64,000 nucleotides of DNA from Bacteroidota bacterium (GTDB lineage Bacteria; Eisenbacteria; RBG-16-71-46; SZUA-252), in the NCBI GenBank assembly GCA_050257045.1, contig JBLMWD010000074.1, forward strand, positions 6,442-70,441. The letters are read 5' to 3'. A program made the translations under genes and the position numbers. Positions 1 to 45,527 of this stretch are shown one piece after another. Position 1 is the first letter of the stretch; the number at the start of each line of letters is the position of its first letter. The notes beneath the pieces were generated by a model. The model did no database searches and had not been told where the DNA came from. It worked only from the letters and a program-made list of their open reading frames with translations.

Positions 1-2
1 TC

Positions 3-743
3 CACATGATCGAAGAGAACGATCTCCAGTGGTACCTGCTCCTGCTCGCGTCCGTCGAGGGACGCATCCGGCCCGACTGGAACGGCCGCGCGGGCGTGGC
101 CCGGTCGTTCAACTGGACCGGCAGGGATCGCGCCCGGCCCATCGACACCTATCAGGCGAATACCATCATGCGGCTCGCCCGGGGGCTCGACCTGACCGCC
201 AACTCGCAGGTGAGCGTCACCGATGCATCGGGACGCGCCCTGGCCGACTCGATCGGACGGAATTCCCGCGTGGTCTCGCAGGGGTCGATCGCCGTCACCG
301 CCACGCCGCTCCGCCGCATCACCGCGGTCTGGTCGCTCCAGGGCTATCGCTCGGGGCCGGGGCTCTGGCGCCCCGCGTCCACCTCGCGCTCGGGCTCGCT
401 CGACCTGCGCTGGACGCCGGTCGCGACGCTCGATCTCAATGGGAGCGTCCAGCGCACGCGCGGACTTCGGCGTGGCGATCCGACCGTCACGTCCTGGCGC
501 GGGACCGGCCAGTGGACTCCGTCCCGGAATCTGGAACTCTCCGGAACGTACCTGCGCAGCCAGCAGCCGCGGGGCGAGGCGGGCGCCGATCTCCCCGCGG
601 GCCTCGAGACCTGGAGCGCGCGCGCGCTGGTCGGCTTCTCCAATGATCTACGGCTGCAGGCCCTCTGGAGCATCGTCGACCCCGGGCGGACGACCCGGGC
701 GACGCGGATCGAGCTGGGCGCGACCCTGGCCTTGCGGAGGTGA
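3..743 (+). CDS. Outer-membrane beta-barrel protein, C-terminal part (5' end outside window)
   Basis: Frame is open from the window edge. Alternating amphipathic strands with aromatic girdle residues (LRWTPVATLDLNGSVQ, QWTPSRNLELSGTYL, IELGATLALRR) ending in a terminal beta-strand. First visible gene of the operon ending in the multiheme cytochrome. Confidence 0.7.
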   Translation, partial: HMIEENDLQWYLLLLASVEGRIRPDWNGRAGVARSFNWTGRDRARPIDTYQANTIMRLARGLDLTANSQVSVTDASGRALADSIGRNSRVVSQGSIAVTATPLRRITAVWSLQGYRSGPGLWRPASTSRSGSLDLRWTPVATLDLNGSVQRTRGLRRGDPTVTSWRGTGQWTPSRNLELSGTYLRSQQPRGEAGADLPAGLETWSARALVGFSNDLRLQALWSIVDPGRTTRATRIELGATLALRR

Positions 744-744
744 C

Positions 745-1335
745 GTGAACCGAGCGCGAAACCACGGATGGATCGCGAGTGCCCTGCTCCTGATCGCGGG
801 CATCGCGGGCTGCGCCGCTCCGGGGCGCCTCTTCGTGAACCGCGAAGCGGACATGGCCTACTACAAGAAGGTGGCCGTGCTCCCCTTCGCCAACCTCACC
901 AACGACCGGTTCGCGGGAGAGCGCGTCACGCGGATGTTCGTCACGGAGCTCACGATCGCCGATCGGTTCCAGGTCGCGGATCCGGGCGAGATCCGATCCG
1001 TGCTGGAACGCACCGGCGGCCTCCCCACCTACGAGGGAACATACGACCCGAAGAAACTGAAGGACGCGGCCGTGGAGGTCGGCGCGAACGGCCTCATCCG
1101 GGGTGCCGTCTCCGAATACCAGATGGTCGGAACCAACGTGTCGCCGCGCCCCTCGGTCGCCTTCGACGTGGAGATGGTCGACGTCGCCACCGGGAACGTG
1201 GTCTGGAAGGCCTCGATTTCGAAGCGCGGGAAGGCCCGATTCCCGATCGTCGGGGGCGGTGCCGCTACCCTGAGCCGCCTCACGGAGGATGCGTGCCGCG
1301 ACGTCGTCCGGCGGATCGATCACGAGGCGTTCTGA
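745..1335 (+). CDS. Lipoprotein, PelC/CsgG/GNA1162-like alpha-beta fold
   Basis: GTG at 745, 1 nt after the upstream stop. Lipobox IAG-C; motif KVAVLPFANL; C-terminal V.F.VEMVDVATGNVVW typical of this lipoprotein class. Confidence 0.7.
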   Translation: MNRARNHGWIASALLLIAGIAGCAAPGRLFVNREADMAYYKKVAVLPFANLTNDRFAGERVTRMFVTELTIADRFQVADPGEIRSVLERTGGLPTYEGTYDPKKLKDAAVEVGANGLIRGAVSEYQMVGTNVSPRPSVAFDVEMVDVATGNVVWKASISKRGKARFPIVGGGAATLSRLTEDACRDVVRRIDHEAF

Positions 1336-1940
1336 GGCGCGCCACAGCGTGGCTTGCCGTGAGTGCCCTGGCCGTCATGGCCGCGGGTTGCGCCGGCAGT
1401 CGGCCGCGCGCCTCGCACGCGCGAGTCACGGTGCCCGATGGCGCGGCCGTGGCCATGCTCCCGTTCGAGGACCTCTCCGGACGTCAGAACGTGGCCGAGG
1501 AATTCACTCGCGTGTTCATGGCGGAGCTCGTGCGGACCGGGACGTTCCCCGTCGTGGAATCCGGAATCGTGGAGGAGACCATGGACCGGCTCTCGATCCG
1601 CTCCACGCGGGCCCTGAGCGCCGCCGAGATCCACCGGCTGGGCGACAGCCTCCACGTCACGCACGTGCTGCTCGGGAACGTGCTCGAGGCGGGCGACCTG
1701 CAGAGCGATGAAGGCGCCGTTCCCTCGGTTGCCGCGGCCCTGCGCCTCGTCGAGGTCTCCTCAGGACGTGTGGTCTGGGCCTGCCATCACAGCCGCACGG
1801 GTGAGGATCGCGAAACGGTGTTCCAGTGGGGCCGCGAGCGGAGCCGGGACAAGCTCATCGCGAACCTCGCCGTCGAGATGTTCGACGACCTACGAAAATC
1901 GGGCGCCCACCACGGCGCCCGGGGAGGATCCAAGTCATGA
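1332..1940 (+). CDS. Lipoprotein, paralogue of the preceding gene (start uncertain: CTG 1332 or GTG 1359)
   Basis: Lipobox AAG-C; AVAMLPFEDL; ALRLVEVSSGRVVW; visibly similar to 745-1335. Confidence 0.65.
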   Translation: MRRATAWLAVSALAVMAAGCAGSRPRASHARVTVPDGAAVAMLPFEDLSGRQNVAEEFTRVFMAELVRTGTFPVVESGIVEETMDRLSIRSTRALSAAEIHRLGDSLHVTHVLLGNVLEAGDLQSDEGAVPSVAAALRLVEVSSGRVVWACHHSRTGEDRETVFQWGRERSRDKLIANLAVEMFDDLRKSGAHHGARGGSKS

Positions 1941-2650
1941 AGTCCGGACGCATCGCGCGCAGCGCCGCCGTTCTCGCCCTGGGGGTTGCCACGATGGCGG
2001 CTGCCCCGGCCCCCAAACTCAAGTCGGTGACGATCGCGATCCGGAACCGGGTCTTCCACGAGTTCGCCGATCAGCAGACCGTGGGCCAGGGAAAGAGCTT
2101 CGTCATCGGCGACACCGACTATTCCGCGAGGATCGTCCAGTTCGTCCCGGACTTCGCCATGGATCTCGGGACCGGGAAGGTGATCTCCCGGTCCTCGGAG
2201 CCGAAGAATCCGGCCTTCAAGGTCGTCGTCTCCCAGAACGGCAAGCCGCAGGACACGACGTGGGCGATGATGTCGCTGCCGCCCCACTTCACCCGCCGTT
2301 CGTTCCTGGCGTTCAAGGTCATGCGCATCGACTTCATGAACCACGCGCCGATCGTCGTGGATTCGGTGCAGGCCTACAAGGAGCTCGAGGCGCTGAAGGA
2401 ACAGGCGAGGAAGAACGCGCGCGCCTCGGGCGAGGACGATCCCGGCCCGAGCGGCGGGATGGGCTTCAATCCCCACGGCCCCGGCGGCCCGATGCCCCAC
2501 GGCGGAGCGGCCGGAATGAACCCGCACGGGGCGGCGCCCTCCGGAATGAACCCGCATGGCACCGGGGCCTCACCCCACGGCGGCACGCCGATTTCCCCCG
2601 TCCCGTCGCACGGAAGCGGCGGCACTGACAAGACCAAGGACGCCAAGTGA
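1937..2650 (+). CDS. Secreted protein with ResB-like periplasmic beta-domain and His/Met/Pro/Gly-rich C-terminal tail
   Basis: ATGA overlap with the upstream stop; Sec-type signal peptide. The FVPDF...SRSSEPKNPA segment resembles ResB/CcsB-type periplasmic inserts (recognised from memory only). Tail has six (P/S)HG units. Confidence 0.55.
   Translation: MKSGRIARSAAVLALGVATMAAAPAPKLKSVTIAIRNRVFHEFADQQTVGQGKSFVIGDTDYSARIVQFVPDFAMDLGTGKVISRSSEPKNPAFKVVVSQNGKPQDTTWAMMSLPPHFTRRSFLAFKVMRIDFMNHAPIVVDSVQAYKELEALKEQARKNARASGEDDPGPSGGMGFNPHGPGGPMPHGGAAGMNPHGAAPSGMNPHGTGASPHGGTPISPVPSHGSGGTDKTKDAK
2511..2559 (+). repeat. Two 19-nt direct repeats (ccggaatgaacccgcaYgg) 30 nt apart, encoding GMNPHG
   Basis: Read directly at 2511-2529 and 2541-2559. 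Confidence 0.9.
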
Positions 2651-5600
2651 ACCGTTCCCGCTGGCTCGTCATCCTGCTTGCCGTCCTTTCCTTCGCCGCC
2701 GCCCCTCGCGCGGAGGCGGCGAAGGAGCCGAAATCCAAGAAACCGACTCGCGCCTGCTACGACTGCCACAAGGAATCCCGAACGGAATTCCAGAAGAAGA
2801 CCGTTCACGCGCCGGTGGCCAAGGAGAACTGCGCGGCCTGCCACGAGAGCCATGGGTTCTCGCAGATGCTCGTGCTGAAGCAACCGCTCCCCGATCTCTG
2901 CTTCTCCTGCCACGGCGAGATGAAGAAGGCGGCGAAGCCTGCGCACGAGCACGCCGCCTTCACGCAGGGGCAGTGTCTCGGCTGTCACGACCCTCACGCC
3001 TCGAACCTTCCCAAGCTCGTCCGCGACGGCGGGCCGGAGACGTCCTGCTTCAAGTGCCACAAGGATTCCGCGGCTCAGGCGAAGGCGGCACACGTCCATC
3101 CGACCTTCGCCAAGGGCGAGTGCTATGCCTGCCACACGGCGCATGGAGGGGCCAACGCGTCGCTCACGAAGGCCGAGGGGGACGCGCTCTGCCAGACGTG
3201 CCACGCGCCGGAGAACCTCGCGGGCAAACACGCCAAGGTGACGACGGGCGGCCTCAAGTGCCTCGATTGCCACGCGCCGCACGCATCCCGAGAGAAGTCG
3301 CTCCTACGCGAGGACGCGCACGCCCCGGTGGCCGGCGGCGAGTGCGACGCCTGCCATGTCATGGAGGGTGGAAAGCCCACGCCCAAGGTGGTGGCCACCG
3401 CGCCGGCGCTCTGCGTGAAGTGCCACGACGACCTGGCGAACGCCAAGTCGGCACCGCACCCGCACGACCCGGTGGCGGAGGGAGACTGCCTCACGTGCCA
3501 CGATCCTCATCGCGGGGCAGCCAAGGGCCTGCTCAAACAGAAGCCGGTCGCACTCTGCGGGAGCTGCCACGACAACGTCGACGAGGACTTGAAGAAGGCC
3601 GTCGTGCACGCCGCCTTCCAGAACGGCTCGTGCGCCTCCTGCCACGACGTGCACGGGTCCAAGAACGCCTCGCTCCAGAAGACGACGGACGGGACCATGT
3701 GCGTCGCGTGCCACAAGGACATCGGCGAGAAGGCCGCGGCGGCCAAGGGAGTCCACCCGCCGGTCGCAAAGAAGGACTGCCTCCGCTGCCACCAGCCGCA
3801 CGCCGCGTCGAACGCGAGGCTCCTCCGCAAGGAGCCGCGCGAGCTCTGCCGGTCCTGCCATGGCGACCTCGAGAAGAACCTGGCGGGACTCGAGGTTCAC
3901 CCGCCGTTCCGTTCCGGTCAGTGCGCGGCCTGCCACGACCCGCACCAGTCCGACCGTCCCGGGATGCTCCGCGCCGACGCCCGCACCGTGTGCGGGAAGT
4001 GCCACAACGACCCACAGCGGGAGGCCGCGCGCGAATACCCGCACAAGCCCGTCGTCGAGGGGCAGTGCCTCACCTGCCACGCACCTCACGCCGGCACCGG
4101 GTCCGCGTTGCTCGTCTCTTCGCAGAGCCAGTTCTGCGTCAAGTGCCACGCCGACATCGGCGCCAAGATCACGGGACCTGCCCCGCACACGCCGGCCGCG
4201 GCGGGACGCTGCACGGCCTGCCACGAGCCGCACGGCGCCTCGAAGAAGAAGCTGCTCAAGGCCGATGCCTCGGCACTCTGCCAGTCCTGCCACGAATCGA
4301 TCGGAAAGGAGGGGGACAAAGTCCACTCACCGGTCGGCGAGAAGGACTGCCTCGCCTGCCATGACCCGCACGGCGGCACGGCGGCGCCCGCGCTCGTCAA
4401 GGCCGTCCCGGCCCTGTGCGCCAGCTGCCACGATCTGGACGACAAGGATCTCGCGGCCAAGCACCAGGGAGCGACCCTCACGGCCGTGAACTGCCTCTCG
4501 TGCCACACGCCGCACGCCTCGAAGAACGACGCGCTCCTGGCCGCGCAGGCGCATCCCGGGTTCATGGAGAAGGATTGCACCAAGTGTCACGCGGCGGGGG
4601 CGCCCCCGGGAGCGAAGAGCCTGAAGAAGCCCGCGACCGCGCTCTGCGTCTCGTGCCACGACATCCCGAAGCGCGCGGGCGCCGCGTCCGCGGCCGCCAA
4701 GGGCGCCCGCAAGGGCATGGCCGGCCCCGGCGCCACGCGCGCGGCCGGGCTCCTGATCCACCCGCCCGTCGCCCGGGGCGAGTGCGTGACCTGCCACACG
4801 CCGCACGCCTCCTCGCGCGACAAGCTGCTCGTCTCCTCGACGCGGCAGCTCTGCGTCACGTGCCACAAGGAGGTCATCCAGCAGTCTGCGGCGAAACACG
4901 GCCATCCGCCCGCCGCAGACGGCGAGTGCGCCCGCTGCCACGAGCCGCACGAGAGCTCCGTCCCGGGGCTGCTCGTCAAGCCGGCGCTCGAGCTGTGCGC
5001 GTCCTGTCACAAGGCGCTGACGGACCGGATCGCGGCGGGCTCCCCCCACTCTCCGGTCGCCAAGGGGCAGTGCTTCAAGTGCCACGCGAGCCATGGGTCG
5101 GACAACGAGGGGATGCTGGTCAAGAACGTGAACGCCACCTGTGCCTCATGCCATGGATTGGCCGGGCCGCGCCTCACGAACGCCCATAAGGGATTCAAGC
5201 TCGCGGGCGCGAACTGCGTCTCCTGTCACGACCCGCACGTGCAGCCGCTCGGGAAGAAAGGGCTGATGCGTCCTGCGCTCCACGCCCCCTTCGCCAAGGG
5301 AGACTGCACCAAGTGCCATGGGACCGCGACGACCGGGGCGCTCGCGCAGCAGGTGCCGGACCTCTGTTACTCCTGCCACCAGACGGCACGCACCTGGTCG
5401 AAGAAAGAGGTCGTGCATGGCCCCCTGAAGACGGAGGCATCCTGCATCTCCTGCCATGGGCCGCACGGGGGGCCCGCGTCGCCAATCCTCAAGGCCGAGC
5501 AGCCGAAGCTCTGCTTCCGCTGCCACGACAAGAAGATCGTCTCCGGCAAGACGAGACACGCGGCCCTCGACGAGGGGTGCACGGCGTGCCATGAGCCGCA

Positions 5601-5853
5601 CTCGTCGGACAAGAAGAAGCTGCTCAACAACGACGTGAACACGCTCTGCCGCGGGTGCCACGAGGACATGAGCAAACACTTCCACCCGACCACGGGCGGC
5701 AAGGACCCGCGCACCGGAGATCCGCTCTCGTGCGTCGGATGCCACAACCCGCATTCGAGCAACCAGGAGCACCTGCTCACCCACGAGCCGAAGCGTGAGC
5801 TCTGCCTCCAGTGCCACGACCCGTCGATGGAGATGTTCAAGAAGAAGGATTGA
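2647..5853 (+). CDS. Giant periplasmic multiheme cytochrome c, 42 CXXCH motifs (paired-CXXCH type)
   Basis: 42 CXXCH motifs counted by hand in the translation (first at nt 2755, last at 5803). SPI-type signal peptide, no lipobox. Repeating unit HxP-x5-6-CxxCH-xPH-x-LL-x-LCxxCH. Confidence 0.97.
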   Translation: MNRSRWLVILLAVLSFAAAPRAEAAKEPKSKKPTRACYDCHKESRTEFQKKTVHAPVAKENCAACHESHGFSQMLVLKQPLPDLCFSCHGEMKKAAKPAHEHAAFTQGQCLGCHDPHASNLPKLVRDGGPETSCFKCHKDSAAQAKAAHVHPTFAKGECYACHTAHGGANASLTKAEGDALCQTCHAPENLAGKHAKVTTGGLKCLDCHAPHASREKSLLREDAHAPVAGGECDACHVMEGGKPTPKVVATAPALCVKCHDDLANAKSAPHPHDPVAEGDCLTCHDPHRGAAKGLLKQKPVALCGSCHDNVDEDLKKAVVHAAFQNGSCASCHDVHGSKNASLQKTTDGTMCVACHKDIGEKAAAAKGVHPPVAKKDCLRCHQPHAASNARLLRKEPRELCRSCHGDLEKNLAGLEVHPPFRSGQCAACHDPHQSDRPGMLRADARTVCGKCHNDPQREAAREYPHKPVVEGQCLTCHAPHAGTGSALLVSSQSQFCVKCHADIGAKITGPAPHTPAAAGRCTACHEPHGASKKKLLKADASALCQSCHESIGKEGDKVHSPVGEKDCLACHDPHGGTAAPALVKAVPALCASCHDLDDKDLAAKHQGATLTAVNCLSCHTPHASKNDALLAAQAHPGFMEKDCTKCHAAGAPPGAKSLKKPATALCVSCHDIPKRAGAASAAAKGARKGMAGPGATRAAGLLIHPPVARGECVTCHTPHASSRDKLLVSSTRQLCVTCHKEVIQQSAAKHGHPPAADGECARCHEPHESSVPGLLVKPALELCASCHKALTDRIAAGSPHSPVAKGQCFKCHASHGSDNEGMLVKNVNATCASCHGLAGPRLTNAHKGFKLAGANCVSCHDPHVQPLGKKGLMRPALHAPFAKGDCTKCHGTATTGALAQQVPDLCYSCHQTARTWSKKEVVHGPLKTEASCISCHGPHGGPASPILKAEQPKLCFRCHDKKIVSGKTRHAALDEGCTACHEPHSSDKKKLLNNDVNTLCRGCHEDMSKHFHPTTGGKDPRTGDPLSCVGCHNPHSSNQEHLLTHEPKRELCLQCHDPSMEMFKKKD

Positions 5854-5857
5854 TGTA

Positions 5858-5958
5858 CGGGGCGCCGTCAGGCGCCCCGGCGCGCGGGGACCTGGGACGC
5901 CCGGCAGCGTCCCGGGAATACGACGGCGGTCCGTTTGTCCACGGACCGCCGTTCTTAC
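5858..5958. terminator. Three consecutive GC-rich hairpins between convergent genes; the third is terminator-like
   Basis: Stems 5858-5879 (cggggcgcc/ggcgccccg), 5891-5916 (cctgggacgc/gcgtcccggg) and 5923-5952 (acggcggtccgt/acggaccgccgt), followed by tcttact. Confidence 0.6.
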
Positions 5959-6004
5959 TCGGGGCGGACGCTTGGAGCCGACTCGTATGGAGCCGCGGAC
6001 CGCT

Positions 6005-9000
6005 CTACAGGCTCGCGACCGCCTGCTTCCGCCGGAGCTGGAGGACCCGCACGTCGGGGTCGACCACGATCTGCTTCGGCAGGAACGCGCAGTGGACCGT
6101 GACGCGCTTCGATTCTCCGGCCGCGAGAGTCACGAGGGTGCGCGCTTCCCGGTAGGACGGGTCCTGTTCGGCGAGGAGCCGCGCCGCGTCACTCGAAGCC
6201 GCCGCTCCCGACGACGCGGGCGGCGCCGGCTTCTTCCAGCGCTCCCCGGCCGTCGCCGCGATCTCGACCGGCATCGTGCCGGTCCCCACGTTCCGCACGA
6301 CCGCGGTCACGTCGTAGCCCGATCCGATCTTCCGCTTCGCGGCGTTCTCGACGCGGTACTCGGGCATCGCCTTCTCCTCGAACCACTGCTTCGCGAAGGC
6401 GTCGTACTTCACGGGATCGGCCGCGTAGGGACGCATGGCGAGCACCAGATCCTGAAGCGCGGGGTGATCGCGGCTGACGCTCCACTCGCGGCAGAAGGCG
6501 CGGTACCCCGCGAGCGCCCGGTCGTGGCCGAGGTAGTCGTAGAGCATCCAGAAGACCCAGCCGCCGCGGTCGTAGACCACGGTCTCGTCCGACGCGCGCT
6601 TGCCGTCGATGTCGTACATCGGGCGCTCGTCGTCCACGCGCCGCCGGTCGCCGTAGCGCGATTCGACTCCCTTCGCGAACTCCATCCGCTCCCGCGGGCC
6701 GAGCACCTGGTCGAAGAGGAGCATCGTCGAGAAGTGCGCCATCCCCTCGCTCAGGAAGTCGGCGCCGGGGCCCTTCGCGGGCGTCACGATGTTTCCCCAC
6801 CACTGGTGGGCTGCCTCGTGGGCGGTCACGAGGAACGTGGCGTTCGTCTTCGCATCGTTCTTCGTGAGGAAGCCGATGTTCTCGCTGAACGTGATGTCGG
6901 TCCCGAATCCCTGGGCGTAGCCGGCGAGTGCCGGGAACTCGGAAAGCTTGAGCTCCTTCCATGGGTACGGCAGGAACCACTCCGAGTACCAGCGGCGCGC
7001 CGCGTCGAGCGTGCTCGACATCTGCGCCACGTTGTACGGATGGACCGCGTTGTAGTAGATCGTCGTCCCGTTCCCGCGCTTCACCTTCCACCGCCCGCAG
7101 ACGATGTTCAGGAGCTTCACGGGATGGTCGGTCTCCCAGACCTGGGTCCGCCATCCGTTCTTCACCGTGTCGCTCGTGCAGACGCCCACCGAGTTGAGCG
7201 TGTAGCCGGCGGGGCCGGTCACGGCGACGCGCGCCGGGAACCAGGCCGTGGCCCCGTACCCGGCCTGCGTGACTCCCTTCCAGTAGTCGCGCGGGTAGCG
7301 CCGCGGCTCGGTCTTGTTGTCCTTCGTCTCGCCCACGTCCTCCATGAACCCGAGCACCGGCATGAAGCTCGGCGTGAATCCGGTGAGAACCACCCCGGAG
7401 GGAAGCACGAACTCCTCCAGATTCCCGCTGTTCTTGCTGATCCCCGCGGGGAGCGCGTTGTCGAAGGTCCAGCCGATCACGACGCTGTCCCCTTTCGCGA
7501 GCGGCCGTGGCGGCGTGAAGAGATAGAGGTGCTTCGAGTCCTCGGGGGTGACCGGACGCCCATTCATCGTCCAGGAGACGTGCCGCCAGCTGATGTCGCC
7601 AGTGAGGGGGATCTGTGCGAGCGTCGTGTCGAGGCTGTTCACGAGGACGATCGCGCCCCGGCTCTCGAGCCGGCTCCGTCCCGGGTCGACCTTCACCGCG
7701 AGGTCGGCGCGCGCGATGTCGGGGAGCGGCGCATCCAGCCACGTCTTGAGGTTCTTCGCCCAGTAGTCCTTCCGCTCCTTCTTCGCCGCACCTCCCTCCG
7801 TTCCCTGGGCGACCTGGAAGAGGAGCGTGATCCAGAGCGCGAGGGGCACGACGGCGTAGGGCATGAGCCGGAGGGCGGACCGGAAGAGCGGGCCCGGCGC
7901 CAGGCGATGCATCGTGCGGACCGGATCACGCCCGCGGCGGCGGAAGAGCCGGACGGCGAGCGCGATGAAAAAGACCGCCGCGCCGAGCACCATCACGCGA
8001 TTCAGGACGAGAGCCATCCGGTCGTGCTCGAAGGGGCCGAGATCGCTCCAGCGGAGCGCGCCCCAGAGCGGCCAGTTCCCCGCCCAGCTGATCTGGTTCG
8101 TGAGGAACCGGTACGTGGTGTAGGCCAGCGCCGCGAGCGAGAGTCCGTACGCTGCGTACCGGTTCCCGACCAGCGCGTAGACCGCGGTCACGAACGCGGT
8201 CCAGAAGAGGAACGTCGGTATGAGCAGCAGCCCCCAGACGAGGAGGTACGGTCCGAGCGTGAACGGCACCGTGTGCTGGACCTGGATCGCGATCCAGCTC
8301 GCAAGCAGCGCCATGGCGATCACCGCGACGCCGATCAGGCTGTTCGCGACCGCCTTCCCGAACAGGAGCGCCCCGGTCCGGACGGGGGTCGCGTAGACCA
8401 GCGCGGCGAGGCCCGTCGCGTGCTCGCGCTGCAGCGATTCCACCGTGTAGAAGAGGAGGAGGAGGCAGACCAGCGTGACCGCCTGGCTCGCGACCGCGAC
8501 GGCGGTCATCCCCGGCGTCAGGAGGAGCGGCGTGTCGAACGCGCCGACCGCGAGGAGCACGTTGCCCAGCACCTGCACGAGGATCAGGACGAGGAAGGGA
8601 TAGAGGCCGGCCTGGCGCCGGAGCTCTTTCGCTTCGGCGCGGGCGACCGCGACGACCGTTTCGCGCAGGGAGGGGGATCCACCCCTCATCGCCAGGGACT
8701 GGATCGGCGCCGGTTGCGGCGCTCCGAGTCCGGGGACCGGCTCGGCGGGGACCGCGGCCGCCGCCTTCCGGCGCGCGCGGGCGGTCTCGACGCCCCGCCG
8801 CGCGCGGGCGACCGACCGCTGGGTGAGAAGGACGCCGCCGACCCCGAGCGCGACCAGCCAGAGGCGGTTCAGCGCAAAGAGGAGATCGTAGGGGACCGGC
8901 TGGGTGTTGTAGTACTTCACGCCCCGGTCCACCTTGAGCAGGTTCTCGTTCAGCCACCGGAATCCCGACGGTTCGACGAGCTGGAGCAGGCGATTCACCT

Positions 9001-9643
9001 CGAGGGAGAGCCACGAGGGCGACCAGGTCCAGAGGAAGAATCCGCAGAAGACGAGCGCCGCGATCGGCGCGAGGAAGACGATGACCGCGCTCCTCGTCCG
9101 CTCCCCGACCCACATCGAGAAGCCGGCGAAGAAGACGAAGAACGGGATCCCGATCACGAGGGCGGGACGGAGGTAATGCCCCCACGCGAACGGACCCCGG
9201 ATCTCCTGGGCCGCGCCGTTGGGGATCGCGTGGTTGAAGAACGCCGCGGTCAGCGCCTGCCAGACGAAGAGGATCGCGAACGTGGCGCCGATCGCGAGGA
9301 AGCGGCCCCAGACGTATTCGCCGGCTGTGAGCGGGGTCGAGCCCAGGATGACGTCGACCCGCTCCTCGCGATCCTTGAGCAGCGTGAGCCCGGCCGCGGC
9401 GGCGATGAAGAACGAGAAGTAGAGGAGGGTCAGGTAGGTCATCATCTGCGTCTGCGCGAACTCGGACGTGATCCACGCCTTGGTCCCGCCGACGGAGCTG
9501 TCGCCCGAGGAGATCTGCATCTGTCCGGTCGACAGGCCCCAGGAGACGAGCAGGATGATGAGCGCCAGGATGAGGACCAGCGGCCGCCGGAAGGAATGCG
9601 CGAACTCGACGCGGAAGGTGGCGAACAGCCGGCGCGGGCTCAT
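6005..9643 (-). CDS. ABC-2-type permease fused to a C-terminal M1-family (gluzincin) aminopeptidase domain
   Basis: Start re-called to ATG 9643 (MSPRRLFATF), which overlaps the ATPase stop. Two multi-TM permease halves, then a soluble domain with HEAAHQWW and a downstream Glu (SEGMA). Confidence 0.85.
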   Translation of the reverse strand: MSPRRLFATFRVEFAHSFRRPLVLILALIILLVSWGLSTGQMQISSGDSSVGGTKAWITSEFAQTQMMTYLTLLYFSFFIAAAAGLTLLKDREERVDVILGSTPLTAGEYVWGRFLAIGATFAILFVWQALTAAFFNHAIPNGAAQEIRGPFAWGHYLRPALVIGIPFFVFFAGFSMWVGERTRSAVIVFLAPIAALVFCGFFLWTWSPSWLSLEVNRLLQLVEPSGFRWLNENLLKVDRGVKYYNTQPVPYDLLFALNRLWLVALGVGGVLLTQRSVARARRGVETARARRKAAAAVPAEPVPGLGAPQPAPIQSLAMRGGSPSLRETVVAVARAEAKELRRQAGLYPFLVLILVQVLGNVLLAVGAFDTPLLLTPGMTAVAVASQAVTLVCLLLLFYTVESLQREHATGLAALVYATPVRTGALLFGKAVANSLIGVAVIAMALLASWIAIQVQHTVPFTLGPYLLVWGLLLIPTFLFWTAFVTAVYALVGNRYAAYGLSLAALAYTTYRFLTNQISWAGNWPLWGALRWSDLGPFEHDRMALVLNRVMVLGAAVFFIALAVRLFRRRGRDPVRTMHRLAPGPLFRSALRLMPYAVVPLALWITLLFQVAQGTEGGAAKKERKDYWAKNLKTWLDAPLPDIARADLAVKVDPGRSRLESRGAIVLVNSLDTTLAQIPLTGDISWRHVSWTMNGRPVTPEDSKHLYLFTPPRPLAKGDSVVIGWTFDNALPAGISKNSGNLEEFVLPSGVVLTGFTPSFMPVLGFMEDVGETKDNKTEPRRYPRDYWKGVTQAGYGATAWFPARVAVTGPAGYTLNSVGVCTSDTVKNGWRTQVWETDHPVKLLNIVCGRWKVKRGNGTTIYYNAVHPYNVAQMSSTLDAARRWYSEWFLPYPWKELKLSEFPALAGYAQGFGTDITFSENIGFLTKNDAKTNATFLVTAHEAAHQWWGNIVTPAKGPGADFLSEGMAHFSTMLLFDQVLGPRERMEFAKGVESRYGDRRRVDDERPMYDIDGKRASDETVVYDRGGWVFWMLYDYLGHDRALAGYRAFCREWSVSRDHPALQDLVLAMRPYAADPVKYDAFAKQWFEEKAMPEYRVENAAKRKIGSGYDVTAVVRNVGTGTMPVEIAATAGERWKKPAPPASSGAAASSDAARLLAEQDPSYREARTLVTLAAGESKRVTVHCAFLPKQIVVDPDVRVLQLRRKQAVASL

Positions 9644-10599
9644 CCCACCGCCTCGACGGACGCGTTGGTCCCGCTGATGCGCCCCGCGAGCGGCGCGGGC
9701 TCTGGTCCGGCGCCGTTCCCCCCGGGGAGCGACCCCAGGCGCATGGAGACGAGGTAGGCGTCCTCGAGCGTGGCCGGCGCGGGGACGAAGCCCGAGGGTG
9801 CCACGCCCGACGGCTCGTAGACGCGGGCCCGGTTCTTCCCTTCCACGATCACCGACTGCGTCACCATCTGGTCTTCCCGCAGCCGCTCGAGGTCCTTCAC
9901 CGGGACGAGCCCTTCGAACATCCGCCCGCCGATCGAGGCGCGAGCCTCGCCCGGGGTGGTGAGCGCGATCAGCCTTCCCGAGCGGATCACCGCGAACCGC
10001 GGACACAGGACCGCCACGTCCTCGACGATGTGCGTCGAGAGGAGGACGATCCGGTCGGCCGCGAGCTCGGAGAGGAGTTGGTAGAAGCGGAGCCGCTCCT
10101 CGGGATCGAGCCCCGCGGTCGGCTCGTCCACGATGATGAGGCGCGGATCGCCCGCGATCGCCTGCGCGATCCCGAGCCGCTGCCGCATGCCGCCGGAGTA
10201 GCTCTTCACGGGCCGCTTCGCCGCGAACGACAGGTTCACGCGGTCGAGGAGCTCGGCCACGAGCTTCTTCTTCCCCTGGGGCGCCTGCACGCCCTTGAGA
10301 TCGAGCAGATGCCCGAGCATGGCCGCGCCGGAGAGATGCGGATAGAAGCCGAACTCCTGGGGCAGGTATCCGAGCCGGGGCCACACGGCCTGCGGATTGG
10401 CGGCGATGTCGACTCCGTCGAGCATGGCGCTTCCGGACGTCGGCTCGAGCAGCCCGGCGAGGATCTTCATGAGCGTCGACTTCCCCGCCCCGTTGGGACC
10501 GAGGAGGCCGAACATCCCGGGGGGAACGTCCAGGTCCACGCCGTTCAAGGCGGTGACGGGGCCCGGGTAGACCTTGACGAGACCGCGGGTGCTGAGCAT
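9640..10599 (-). CDS. ABC transporter ATP-binding protein
   Basis: Walker A GPNGAGKS, signature YSGGM, Walker B IIVDEPT, H-loop STH. Confidence 0.95.
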   Translation of the reverse strand: MLSTRGLVKVYPGPVTALNGVDLDVPPGMFGLLGPNGAGKSTLMKILAGLLEPTSGSAMLDGVDIAANPQAVWPRLGYLPQEFGFYPHLSGAAMLGHLLDLKGVQAPQGKKKLVAELLDRVNLSFAAKRPVKSYSGGMRQRLGIAQAIAGDPRLIIVDEPTAGLDPEERLRFYQLLSELAADRIVLLSTHIVEDVAVLCPRFAVIRSGRLIALTTPGEARASIGGRMFEGLVPVKDLERLREDQMVTQSVIVEGKNRARVYEPSGVAPSGFVPAPATLEDAYLVSMRLGSLPGGNGAGPEPAPLAGRISGTNASVEAVG

Positions 10600-10741
10600 C
10601 GGGGCCCTCCTCTGGGCGGGTTCCGGGGCTGCGGCGATGGATTCTCTACGATCCGATTCTCGGGTGGGTTTCCGGTCCGGGAACGAGGATACTCGTGCGC
10701 TCGCGGCATCAAGGCAGCTTTTCTGGAATGCGGAGAGCCGG

Positions 10742-12622
10742 TTGGACCGACCCCCAGAGAAACCGCTCCTCGTCTACGACGGCGATTGCGGCTTCTGCCG
10801 GCTCTGGATCGACCGCTGGCGCGCCACCACGGGCGACCGCGTCGACTACGCCCCGTTCCAGGAGGTCCTGAGCCGCTTCCCCGAGATCCCCCGCGAGCGC
10901 TTCGCGCGAGCGGTCCAGCTCCGGGACCCGGACGGCCGCTGGTACGGCGGCGCCGAGGCGGTCTTTCGCGCGCTCGCCGTCGAACCGGGTCGGCGCTGGC
11001 CCCTGTGGCTCTACCGCCGGGTCCCCGGCGTCCGCCCGTTCACCGAGGCCGCCTACCGCCTCGTGGCGGCGAACCGGAATCCGCTCGATCGCCTCACGCG
11101 CTGGGTCTGGGGGAAGCACGTGACACCCCCCGGCGAGACCTTCACCTCGTGGATCTTCCTTCGGCTCCTCGCCATGGTCTATCTCGTGGCGTTCGTCTCG
11201 ATGTGGGTCCAGGCGGGCGGTCTCGTCGGCACGCACGGCATCCTCCCGGCGCGCGACTTCCTCGCGGCGATCCACGTGCGCTACGGCGTGCTCGGCTACT
11301 GGATCGCCCCGACCCTCGGATGGCTCGGCGCGAACGACACGCTCCTCACCATCCTCTGCGCGTCGGGAACCGCGCTCGCGGCGCTCCTCTTGCTCGGCGT
11401 GGCCCCGATCGCCTGCCTCGCGGGACTCTGGATCGGCTATCTCTCGCTCTCCATCCTCGGCCAGGACTTCTTCTGGTTCCAGTGGGACAGCCTGCTCCTC
11501 GAGACGGGTCTCCTCGCGATCCTGATCGCGCCGTGGCGCGGATGGTCGCGCCCCTGGAGCGATCCGCCCCCGAGCCGCGCGGGGCTCTGGCTCCTCCGCT
11601 GGCTCTTCTTCCGCCTCTCGTTCTCCTCGGCCGCGGTGAAGCTCCTGAGCGGCGATCTCTCCTGGCGGGCGGGAACGGCGCTCCGGCACCACTTCGAGAC
11701 GCAGCCGCTCCCGCCCTGGACCGCCTGGTACGCGCACCGGCTGCCGCCCGGGCTCCTCGATGCCGCCACCTATGGAACCCTCCTGATCGAGGGACTCGCA
11801 CCCTTCCTGGTCTTCGGTCCCCGGCGGATCCGGTTCCTGGGTGCCGGTCTCGTGGCGGCCCTCCAGATCCTCATCCTGCTCACCGGGAACTACGGCTTCT
11901 TCAACTGGCTCACGCTGGCGCTCTGCGTCGCCTGCCTCGACGACGGCGTCTGGCCCGCGTCATGGCTGCGGCGCATGCGCGAGGAGGACGCGGCCCGCGG
12001 CGAGCGGGCGCGGCGCGGAGGGTGGTACGGCTGGGCGATCCGGCCGCTCGCCGTGGGCCTGTTCTTGATGTCCCTGGTCCCCTTCCTCACGTCCCTCCAG
12101 CTCCCGACGTCCTGGCTCGGACCGGTCGAATACGTCTCGAGCCTCGCCTGGCCCTTCCGCTCGTTCAACCGGTACGGTCTCTTCGCGGTCATGACCACGC
12201 GCCGCCTCGAGATCGTGATCGAGGGGAGCGACGACGGCTCGCGATGGCTGCCGTACGAGCTTCCGTTCAAGCCCGGCGACCCATCGCGCCGCCCCGACTT
12301 CGTGGCCCCGCACCAGCCGCGTCTCGACTGGCAGATGTGGTTCGCCGCGCTGAGCGACTTCCGCCAGCAGCCGTGGTTCCTGCTCCTCTGCCGCGCCCTG
12401 CTCGAGGGCTCCGCGCCGGTAGCCGCGCTCTTCGAGCGGAATCCCTTTCCCCGCGCGCCCCCCCGGTTCCTGCGGGCCGTGGTCTACGACTACCACTTCA
12501 CGGACGGGGACGAGATGCGCCGAGCCGGTGCGTGGTGGACGCGGAGGGCGGTCGGGCTCTACTGCCCGGTGCTCGCGGTGCAGGGAGGACAGCTCGTGGC
12601 GGTGGGTGCCGCGCCTCCGTGA
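10742..12622 (+). CDS. DCC (DUF393) thiol-disulfide oxidoreductase domain fused to lipase maturation factor (LMF) family membrane protein
   Basis: N-terminal LVYDGDCGFC; LMF motifs QWDSLLLETG, HHFETQPLP, GNYGFFNWL, YGLFAVMT, PHQPRLDWQMWFAAL. Start uncertain; TTG 10742 chosen. Confidence 0.85.
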   Translation: MDRPPEKPLLVYDGDCGFCRLWIDRWRATTGDRVDYAPFQEVLSRFPEIPRERFARAVQLRDPDGRWYGGAEAVFRALAVEPGRRWPLWLYRRVPGVRPFTEAAYRLVAANRNPLDRLTRWVWGKHVTPPGETFTSWIFLRLLAMVYLVAFVSMWVQAGGLVGTHGILPARDFLAAIHVRYGVLGYWIAPTLGWLGANDTLLTILCASGTALAALLLLGVAPIACLAGLWIGYLSLSILGQDFFWFQWDSLLLETGLLAILIAPWRGWSRPWSDPPPSRAGLWLLRWLFFRLSFSSAAVKLLSGDLSWRAGTALRHHFETQPLPPWTAWYAHRLPPGLLDAATYGTLLIEGLAPFLVFGPRRIRFLGAGLVAALQILILLTGNYGFFNWLTLALCVACLDDGVWPASWLRRMREEDAARGERARRGGWYGWAIRPLAVGLFLMSLVPFLTSLQLPTSWLGPVEYVSSLAWPFRSFNRYGLFAVMTTRRLEIVIEGSDDGSRWLPYELPFKPGDPSRRPDFVAPHQPRLDWQMWFAALSDFRQQPWFLLLCRALLEGSAPVAALFERNPFPRAPPRFLRAVVYDYHFTDGDEMRRAGAWWTRRAVGLYCPVLAVQGGQLVAVGAAPP

Positions 12623-44800: not shown

Positions 44801-44941
44801 GAAGTCGCGCCGCGAGGGCGCCGTGACCTCTTCCGAGGGGGTCAGGAATTCCTGGCTGCGAAGCTCCTCGACGCGCGGGGAACCCTCCAGCTCCTCGACC
44901 GTGGACCAGTGCTTCGGAGGGCGTCCGTCTACATGTGGCAT
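41891..44941 (-). CDS. actB: Alternative complex III subunit ActB (molybdopterin-oxidoreductase-like domain plus Fe-S domain)
   Basis: Start re-called to ATG 44941; Tat motif SRRDFLK then AAG-C; C-terminal [43 protein letters not shown]...CQQTCP. Confidence 0.93.
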
Positions 44942-45444
44942 GTGTTGCACTCCGTCGAGGCCTTGTTCTGGCGGTGGCACTGGATGCACCACCCCATCTT
45001 CAGATTCGCGTACTGCCGCACCTCGTCCTCGGTCTCGACGGGTCCGTGGCACTTCTGGCAGGTGAAGCCCTTCGCCACGTGCCAGCGGTGGCTGAAGTAG
45101 ACGTAGTCGGGGAGGCGGTGGATCCGGACCCACGGGACCGGCTTGTCGGCCTGGTAGAGCGCCGTGAGCTCCTTGATCGCGGGGCGGTCCGTGCGCGCCA
45201 CGGTGTGGCAGTTCATGCAGACGTTCATCGAGGGCACGGTGGCGTGCCGCGAGTGCTCGGCGCTCGAGTGGCAGTAGAGGCAGGGGATCTTCCGCGTGCC
45301 TGCGTGCAGCTTGTGGCTGAAGGCGATCGGCTGCTTCGGCATGTAGCCGACGTTCGAGAACGAGTCGAAGAACGCCCACGCCCCCACGGCCAGCAGAACC
45401 AGGACGAGAAGCGGCAATAACCTTCTTGAGCTCTGTTCGCTCAC
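44929..45444 (-). CDS. actA: Alternative complex III pentaheme cytochrome c ActA
   Basis: One N-terminal TM; QPIAFSHKLHAG; five CXXCH (CLYCH, CMNCH, CQKCH, CIQCH, CNTCH). Confidence 0.95.
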   Translation of the reverse strand: MSEQSSRRLLPLLVLVLLAVGAWAFFDSFSNVGYMPKQPIAFSHKLHAGTRKIPCLYCHSSAEHSRHATVPSMNVCMNCHTVARTDRPAIKELTALYQADKPVPWVRIHRLPDYVYFSHRWHVAKGFTCQKCHGPVETEDEVRQYANLKMGWCIQCHRQNKASTECNTCHM

Positions 45445-45505
45445 GCCTCTGACGTGCCTCGTAGTTCGTTCGAATGCGCGAAGAAAGGCCCGAAGCAGAA
45501 TTTGA

Positions 45506-45527
45506 GTTTGTGAATAGTGTCACCAAC
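45506..45527. promoter_or_regulatory. Palindromic Rex- or CRP/FNR-like operator upstream of actA
   Basis: TTGTGAA-TAGT-GTCACCA (12/14 to the Rex consensus TTGTGAA-N4-TTCACAA; 9/10 to CRP TGTGA-N6-TCACA) in an AT-rich patch. Confidence 0.55.

Follow-up and report, generated by a model that had tools for sequence, protein, structure and literature searches.

The 42-Heme Cytochrome Gene

The subject of this report is a 64,000-nucleotide stretch of DNA (contig JBLMWD010000074.1 of the assembly GCA_050257045.1, placed by GTDB in Eisenbacteria), referred to below as the window, and a gene near its left end that encodes a giant c-type cytochrome of 1068 amino acids (aa). A motif count on the translation of the open reading frame (ORF) gives exactly 42 CxxCH heme-binding motifs and no variant ones; heme 1 starts at 2755 and heme 42 ends at 5817, and all these positions had been listed correctly in the first-pass annotation, a reading of the bare sequence. 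The product contains 90 His, 84 Cys, and 13 Met residues. From comparison with other genomes, it is best understood as the single-chain form of a pair of adjacent genes encoding a 26-heme and a 16-heme protein.

The cytochrome gene is the final gene of its operon (Table 1). It starts with a GTG codon that overlaps the stop codon of the gene upstream (GTGA). The N-terminus is a typical Sec signal without a lipobox Cys, and the protein is predicted to be exported by Sec, soluble, and built of minimal peptide at about 25 residues per heme. A hairpin with a T-rich tail that follows the gene is likely to be the intrinsic terminator of the operon.

Table 1. Features of the 42-heme cytochrome operon and of its last gene (positions in the window)
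Feature	Coordinates	Strand	Remarks
C-terminal part of a 540–570-aa protein	1..743	+	gene cut by the window edge; no Pfam match
LpoB/GNA1162/CsgG-like lipoprotein	745..1335 (start approximate)	+	lipobox IAGC; homologue of a 203-aa lipoprotein of Geobacter sp. AOG1, E 4e-22
Second LpoB/CsgG-like lipoprotein	1329..1940 (start approximate)	+	homologue of both halves of a 370-aa protein of Geobacter sp. AOG1, E 2e-13
Small exported conserved protein	1937..2650 (start approximate)	+	directly upstream of fused 42-heme genes; no Pfam match
42-heme c-type cytochrome ORF	2647..5853	+	1068 aa; aligned full length to 42-heme homologues
Sec signal peptide	2647..2718	+	MNRSRWLVILLAVLSFAAAPRAEA; from the translation; cleavage site inferred by the A-x-A rule
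Module 1, hemes 1–9	2755..3357	+	B(AB)3 S A′
Joint 1, hemes 7 (B), 8 (S), 9 (A′)	3190..3357	+	
A′-to-B connector 1	3358..3411	+	local minimum (69) of the predicted local distance difference test (pLDDT)
Module 2, hemes 10–26	3412..4590	+	B(AB)7 S A′; undivided 17-heme unit
Joint 2, hemes 24 (B), 25 (S), 26 (A′)	4417..4590	+	
A′-to-B connector 2, fusion junction	4591..4644	+	site of the split in two-gene genomes
Module 3, hemes 27–35	4645..5319	+	B(AB)3 S A′
Heme 27–28 connector	4660..4758	+	33 aa/99 nt, with an Ala/Gly/Lys insertion of ~21 aa
Joint 3, hemes 33 (B), 34 (S), 35 (A′)	5140..5319	+	
A′-to-B connector 3	5320..5364	+	
Module 4, hemes 36–42	5365..5817	+	B(AB)3; divergent C-terminal end without S/A′ joint
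Putative terminator hairpin	5921..5950	+	G+C-rich inverted repeat ACGGCGGTCCG...CGGACCGCCGT, then TCTT; read directly from the sequence

Heme Pairs, Joints, and Ligands

Most of the hemes alternate between two types. In type A, an H-x-P element (His at −8) stands ahead of CxxCH-x-x-H; in type B, which lies 23 aa past A, the motif is preceded by a hydrophobic residue (L-CxxCH) and no extra His is supplied. This alternation, noticed at first pass, is borne out by a per-heme listing and an offset scan. The pairs are recognized by Paired_CXXCH_1 (PF09699) of Pfam and TIGR01905 of NCBIfam, which describe a domain of ~41 aa with two CXXCH motifs ~23 aa apart; each model covers 21 stretches of the protein above its curated cut-off (726.8 bits vs. 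20.6 and 680.7 bits vs. 25.2, respectively).

The alternation is interrupted at hemes 7–9, 24–26, and 33–35, with the pattern and at the coordinates that had been annotated. At each of these joints, a B heme is followed by an extra heme of type S (hemes 8, 25, and 34; His at −10, CxxCH-x-x-H) and then, 28–30 aa further on, by an A-like heme without the downstream His, here called A′ (hemes 9, 26, and 35). Each A′ heme is connected to the next B heme by a Gly/Pro/Ala-rich segment. The joints had been described as similar, which holds for their pattern and for profile comparison across the family, where S hemes best match one another and A′ hemes do likewise. It does not hold for raw identity in the window sequence alone, where the joints are 39–44% identical to one another and ordinary four-heme windows reach 38% on average and 49% at most.

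A protein search yielded about 50 full-length homologues of 1014–1100 aa with 33–39% identity, labelled by source as Zixibacteria, Krumholzibacteria, Gemmatimonadaceae, and GN15. All of them but one, which lacks two motifs, carry exactly 42 CxxCH motifs, and the long gaps fall between the same hemes throughout; thus, the comparison of heme number among orthologues that had been proposed as a check gives 42 in nearly every full-length case. In an alignment of 48 homologues at 34–40% identity, all 42 motifs (126 motif residues) are invariant. Besides the motifs, 40 His residues are kept at ≥90%, and two more at lower levels (H195 at 81% and H924 at 73%), so the candidate distal ligands number 42 for 42 hemes, 26 of them before and 16 after heme 26. 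In every module, the count of spare His equals that of the hemes. In the same alignment, the His at +7 is found in 98–100% of A and S hemes, in 0–6% of B hemes (heme 42 being unscored), and in 0% of A′ hemes. The A-to-B spacing is nearly always 23, and the S-to-A′ spacing is fixed at 28, 28, and 30 in the three joints, while the heme-to-heme distance from A′ to B varies (15–25 aa for connector 1, 19–24 for connector 2, and 17–23 for connector 3).

All-bis-His ligation, suggested at first pass from the window alone, is plausible because the 48 homologues keep the 42 motifs, the joint positions, and the 42 candidate distal His. Therefore, the pattern of pairs and joints and the proposed ligation should be regarded as signatures of the whole family rather than as chance features of one sequence.

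One Chain or Two: 42 = 26 + 16

The homologues include a second size class, with 26 hemes spaced as hemes 1–26 of the window protein and an end 1–12 aa past heme 26. Each 26-heme gene examined is followed by one for a 16-heme protein, which bears a signal peptide of its own and shows the spacing of hemes 27–42. The spacing pattern of the window protein equals that of the 26-heme and 16-heme products taken together in three of these loci (L004, L005, and L020) and in ~27 further ones; in the window protein, an 18-aa connector takes the place of the stop codon and signal peptide of the split forms.

When one genome per species was scanned, 17 fused 42-heme loci and ~30 split 26 + 16 loci were found; by the labels of their records, they come from about eleven phyla. 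The closest relatives of the window protein, in four metagenome-assembled genomes of Candidatus Eisenbacteria (48–55% identity), are all fused. The split form occurs in Geobacter sp. AOG1 and other hosts including Geobacteraceae, Desulfurivibrionaceae, Nitrospirota, Anaeromyxobacter, Chloroflexota, Myxococcales, and Acidobacteriota. The fused proteins were monophyletic in 0 of 200 neighbour-joining bootstraps, one of them (L022) falling within a split clade, and parsimony gave 2–4 changes of state on the unrooted tree. By these trees, fused and split forms have interconverted at least twice. The break between hemes 26 and 27, already drawn in the first-pass annotation, is thus found as a cut between two adjacent genes in ~30 genomes, and, with the repeated changes of state, it is a real and repeatedly used module boundary.

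Some apparent variants were rejected. Further splits at 9|10 or 11|13 (L065 and L064) are frameshifts, with ORFs that overlap in different frames and no signal peptide, and a frameshift also affects P0001 (29 hemes), the nearest homologue in the database. A search of the literature found no published description of a 42-heme chain as the single-chain form of a 26 + 16 pair, of the invariant total, or of self-contained modules set off by joints. What is new here is the single-chain form of the pair, the total of 42 kept across phyla, and the joints as delimiters of self-contained modules.

Module Plan and the Question of Duplication

In terms of heme types, the protein is best described as [B(AB)3 S A′] [B(AB)7 S A′] [B(AB)3 S A′] [B(AB)3], i.e., 9 + 17 + 9 + 7 hemes. 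The first-pass annotation had recognized a modular chain, the joints at module ends, and the break after heme 26, but it had also cut hemes 10–26 between 17 and 18, and this cut is not retained. In family profile comparisons, no boundary signal was detected at 17|18: heme 18 resembles an ordinary internal B heme, whereas the module-initial B hemes 10, 27, and 36 are weakly alike. To judge from the sequences, the division into 10–17 and 18–26 is arithmetic, with no sequence feature behind it. A four-heme super-period within hemes 11–24 was considered and dropped as weak (14.4 at offset 4 vs. 12.3 at offset 2).

It had been proposed that the protein grew by duplication of a nine-heme module in tandem (hemes 1–9, 18–26, and 27–35), with the joints and the Ala/Gly/Lys linker acting as mechanical hinges. 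As a whole, this history is unlikely. In its favour, modules 1–9 and 27–35 have a common plan, and the S and A′ hemes each best match their own kind. After removal of row and column effects, the predicted pairing of hexads 19–24 and 28–33 ranks first among hexad comparisons (13.2 vs. 10.5, 10.2, and 9.7), and hemes 19–20 and 28–29 match each other best, their DNA being 72% identical over 108 nt. However, the margin of the top score is small, and the score comes mostly from the pair preceding the joint (23–24 vs. 32–33). Comparison of units inside the single sequence shows only the di-heme period, and a DNA repeat search returned no long repeat or tandem array, only motif-centred repeats of 18–108 nt with 60–89% identity. 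The expected excess of similarity among nine-heme units is not supported by these comparisons, and heme 18 lacks the signature of a module start. Moreover, the architecture was fixed before the split of lineages that are now 34–40% identical, and therefore any duplication must be ancient and untraceable. Of the idea of growth by duplication, the modular plan stands and a recent duplication does not; the demonstrable event is gene fusion or fission.

The mechanism itself does operate in the superfamily. A 52-heme relative (P0124; 1629 aa, 52 CxxCH) consists of plain tandem repeats of a module of ~16 hemes, in which the spacing string 25 23 25 28 21 22 23 23 23 25 28 18 23 35 50 86 recurs three times; in this protein, module duplication appears to be recent. 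An S–A′ joint recurs every 5 hemes in a 38-heme family (P0054, P0130, and P0132) and every 7 hemes in a 21-heme family (7 + 7 + 7; e.g., P0091 and P0108). Modules in general thus seem to follow the grammar B(AB)n S A′, where n is 1, 2, 3, or 7.

A hinge role of the linker is not supported. The 33-aa linker is present after heme 27, as annotated, and lengthens the heme 27–28 spacing to 46 aa in the window protein; the spacing is 38 aa in one fragment with 60% identity, and the long form occurs only in these two. In the closest Eisenbacteria genomes, the spacing is an ordinary 25 aa, which speaks against a hinge, and other clades have insertions of their own after hemes 10, 20, 21, or 29. The Ala/Gly/Lys insertion is, by this comparison, lineage-specific and not a conserved hinge. 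In the structure prediction described below, the linker is a local minimum of pLDDT (51–69), with a low-confidence helix at residues 672–690.

Predicted Structure and Likeness to MtrA

AlphaFold2 (AF2), run on the full protein with the 48-sequence alignment, gave a mean pLDDT of 83.9 and a predicted template-modelling score (pTM) of 0.55, with local pLDDT minima of 69, 75, and 80 at the three A′-to-B connectors. These connectors, which vary in length, follow the joints that mark the module ends. High local and low global confidence would fit, as an indirect sign, a long chain held by nearest-neighbour contacts alone.

The sole Foldseek match in the PDB is MtrA (6r2q_A; E 6e-8, probability 1.0), which is also the best match in sequence searches of the PDB (E 4e-16 with the single sequence and 2e-32 with the profile). 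MtrA (6R2Q chain A) is built of the same paired-CXXCH block, with bis-His hemes and a low ratio of amino acids to hemes; it differs in having 10 hemes instead of 42, and it aligns to an uninterrupted run (profile positions 307–539), not to a joint. The MtrA/DmsE model TIGR03508 describes proteins of ~300–350 aa with ten CXXCH, as opposed to 42 motifs in 1068 aa here, and its hidden Markov model score of 438 passes the cut-off only because 8 partial, repeated matches are added up. The system is different too: the window contains no MtrB-type porin gene recognizable by sequence and no MtrC partner. Another match, 7tfs_A, is weak and partial (profile E 1e-6, ~30 residues). Polymerizing cytochromes of the OmcS/OmcE/OmcZ type have subunits of 4–8 hemes, and the window protein has neither this size nor, beyond that weak hit, likeness to a solved filament subunit.

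According to the authors of 6R2Q, MtrA is reportedly ~8 nm long. In another account, its length is ~100 Å (PMC5566968). Scaling from 10 hemes over ~8–10 nm, a straight 42-heme chain would span ~34–42 nm. A wire tens of nanometres long is the likely form of the protein, because MtrA is the sole solved relative and because there are only ~25 aa per heme.

In Geobacter, pools of multiheme proteins in the periplasm are regarded as electron buffers, and the 42-heme protein might be a compact store of this kind, a capacitor whose hemes fold back at the joints. The three joints could serve as turns, and the low pTM is compatible with a folded-back form. Such a store is nonetheless decidedly improbable: the peptide left over for a globular core is scant, MtrA is linear, and the strict total of 42 in both fused and split forms is easier to explain by a constraint on length than by one on capacity.

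Operon Neighbours and the Geobacter osc Cluster

At all four junctions of the operon, neighbouring genes overlap slightly or lie next to each other within a few bases (743/745, 1335/1329, 1940/1937, and 2650/2647, including ATGA and GTGA), which suggests translational coupling. The protein cut by the window edge is kept beside the cytochrome in relatives, where two of four homologues end in Phe, and it is likely to be an outer-membrane barrel. An MtrB/PioB-type porin is not recognizable in it: like the fragment, its full-length homologues of 541–570 aa have no Pfam match, and BLAST gives no similarity of the fragment to a 754-aa protein of Geobacter sp. AOG1. The small exported protein is 38% identical to its Krumholzibacteria counterpart (E 1e-24). 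Its tail (~2424–2647) is rich in His, Gly, and Pro, with NPHG-like repeats (GFNPHGPGGPMPHGGAAGMNPHGAAPSGMNPHGTGASPHGG), and may bind metal or heme; the Krumholzibacteria homologue is without the tail.

The osc cluster is said to have been defined by Shen et al. 2025. In G. sulfurreducens, GSU2495 is a protein of ~70 kDa with 26 heme motifs, conserved in Geobacter (PMC2996986; bioRxiv 10.1101/2025.11.06.686851). GSU2495 is oscI and GSU2494 is oscJ; both products are predicted to be periplasmic, and the genes lie in the omcS-companion operon (PMC13194489). The products of this operon are proposed to fold (OscH), secrete (OscE/F/G), and shape (OscD) the OmcS nanowires (PMC13194489, citing Shen et al. 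2025).

In Geobacter sp. AOG1 (L020), the gene order is large protein, lipoprotein, double lipoprotein-like protein, peptidyl-prolyl isomerase (PPIase), 26-heme cytochrome, 16-heme cytochrome, and NHL protein. The window cytochrome is ~31% identical to this pair over its full length. The split homologues, including AOG1, have 26 + 16 hemes with the spacing of window hemes 1–26 and 27–42, and OscI/OscJ as published agree in heme count, size, and gene order (PMC2996986, PMC13194489, bioRxiv 10.1101/2025.11.06.686851). The window protein shows the same order of 26 and then 16 hemes, 42 in total, with joints after hemes 8, 25, and 34, as a fusion. The neighbourhoods are also alike in their LpoB/CsgG-like lipoproteins, the large Pfam-less protein, and the NHL beta-propeller; the OscF/G-like lipoproteins of the window are those at 745–1335 and 1329–1940. 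They differ in that an OscH-like PPIase lies beside the osc cytochrome, while the window has a small unrelated conserved protein there. The split pair of G. sulfurreducens is thus probably GSU2495/oscI and GSU2494/oscJ, and we infer, with heme counts and synteny as the link to the GSU genes, that the window protein is a fused OscI–OscJ homologue in an osc-like cluster.

In related loci, the cluster also encodes an NHL beta-propeller together with two hexaheme cytochromes of 365–395 aa. In Krumholzibacteria, the hexaheme proteins (L003:4153–5250 and 5428–6615; 365 and 395 aa) have wide heme spacing, and so does a 9-heme protein of 526 aa in Eisenbacteria (L007:931–2511). These neighbours may be extracellular partners. 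The hexaheme ones are OmcS-like only in size, heme count, and synteny, and searches by sequence detected no PDB relatives for these neighbours.

In split loci, a SurA-like prolyl isomerase gene stands directly upstream of the 26-heme gene. Natural fusions of such an isomerase (PF13145, PF00639) with a 26- or 22-heme paired-CXXCH cytochrome also occur (P0084, 1217 aa, and P0089, 896 aa). Taken together, the gene order and the fusions point to a functional link between the isomerase and the cytochrome.

Since the 42-heme gene directly follows homologues of the proteins proposed to secrete OmcS (OscE/F/G; PMC13194489), its product might itself be exported through the neighbouring barrel/lipoprotein channel and act as a conduit at the surface or outside the cell, or belong to a filament. 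The Sec signal without a lipid anchor would allow this, and extracellular cytochromes of 34–85 hemes have been reported in PCC3 clusters (PMC5566968). We consider such export very unlikely. OscI and OscJ of Geobacter are predicted to be periplasmic (PMC13194489), no feature of polymerization is evident, and the split form would require two chains to be sent out and assembled outside the cell.

The genes on the other side of the cytochrome look unrelated to the cluster. They are convergent and encode an ABC-2 permease with an M1 peptidase domain (6005–9481, −) and an ABC ATPase (9640–10599, −). Further on, the gene at 10574–12622 (+) encodes a DCC1-like thiol-disulfide oxidoreductase domain with lipase maturation factor (LMF1) domains. 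The sole other ORF of the window with several heme motifs (44929–45519, −) encodes 196 aa with 5 CxxCH.

Other Giant and Modular Cytochromes

Multiheme cytochromes of giant size and wire-like ratios of amino acids to hemes have been described before, the largest reported having 85 hemes (PMC5566968). In the PCC3 clusters, periplasmic cytochromes of ~21 hemes and extracellular ones of 34–85 hemes, with 22–39 aa per heme, adjoin a porin gene, and a low ratio is read as a sign that a cytochrome is wire-like (PMC5566968). The window protein is like them in its very many hemes, its proposed wire role, and the position of its gene beside a putative porin; it differs in heme count and module plan, and neither the inner-membrane protein nor the extracellular giant cytochrome of PCC3 is found in the window. 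The 21-heme family mentioned above uses the joint grammar of the window protein as three 7-heme modules; identity with the PCC3 periplasmic cytochrome is not implied. Two other proteins from the searches, P0133 (3592 aa, 131 CxxCH) and P0176 (3274 aa, 129 CxxCH), consist of short-period repeats with the same spacing classes, and their motif counts are well above the 85 hemes cited as the record (PMC5566968).

A modular extended chain is also formed by GSU1996 of G. sulfurreducens. This dodecaheme "nanowire" is a chain of repeated small heme domains extending over ~12 nm. Unlike the window protein, it is not of the paired-CXXCH kind and is composed of c7-type triheme units, with 12 hemes, some of them His-Met.

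Proposed Role

The explanation that accounts best for these data, and that we consider probable, is that of a fused 42-heme periplasmic wire of four modules encoded in an osc-like cluster. The hemes would form one continuous chain of roughly 30–40 nm along which electrons hop; the chain would run from the inner-membrane side of the periplasm to the outer-membrane channel and the extracellular cytochromes. Selection probably acts on chain length, since the hemes number 42 whether they sit on one polypeptide or on two. In this explanation, the data show the export signal, the counts of hemes and ligands, the module plan, the break point, the constant total, and the MtrA-type building blocks; continuity of the chain, extended shape, periplasmic location, conduit role, and selection on length are inferred.

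Several points weigh against it. The superposition on MtrA is loose, with a TM score of 0.44 (by MtrA length) and a root-mean-square deviation of 17 Å. No PPIase gene adjoins the window cytochrome, whose neighbour has no similarity to the AOG1 PPIase, and such a gene may lie past the edge. The window cuts the cluster upstream, so that the cluster's further cytochromes fall outside it. Finally, the orthology to GSU2495/GSU2494 is drawn through the AOG1 locus as a proxy, together with published heme counts and gene order.

A bolder version of the periplasmic wire is put forward tentatively. The 42-heme chain, whether a single polypeptide or a docked 26 + 16 pair, would be a wire of fixed length that crosses the whole periplasm, plugs into an osc-type barrel/lipoprotein channel, and feeds extracellular hexaheme cytochromes directly, replacing or supplementing diffusing carriers. 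The number 42 would then correspond to the distance spanned, and the S–A′ joints would be the points at which the chain can be cut and rejoined while the heme path is kept.

How electrons cross the 20–30 nm of the periplasm is debated for metal-respiring and electroactive bacteria, and the usual answer is small diffusing cytochromes. The 42-heme family offers a concrete, testable candidate for a static trans-periplasm wire, because it has exactly 42 hemes in one gene or two and adjoins the proposed nanowire export machinery. Should the protein turn out compact, it would simply be another large periplasmic cytochrome. Structural work should be simpler with the fused form, since there is a single chain to express. 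The grammar B(AB)n S A′, which also describes the 21-heme (7 + 7 + 7), 38-heme, and possibly ~130-heme relatives, supplies all the His ligands that it needs and allows a cut at an A′-to-B connector; heme wires of a desired length could be designed on this basis.

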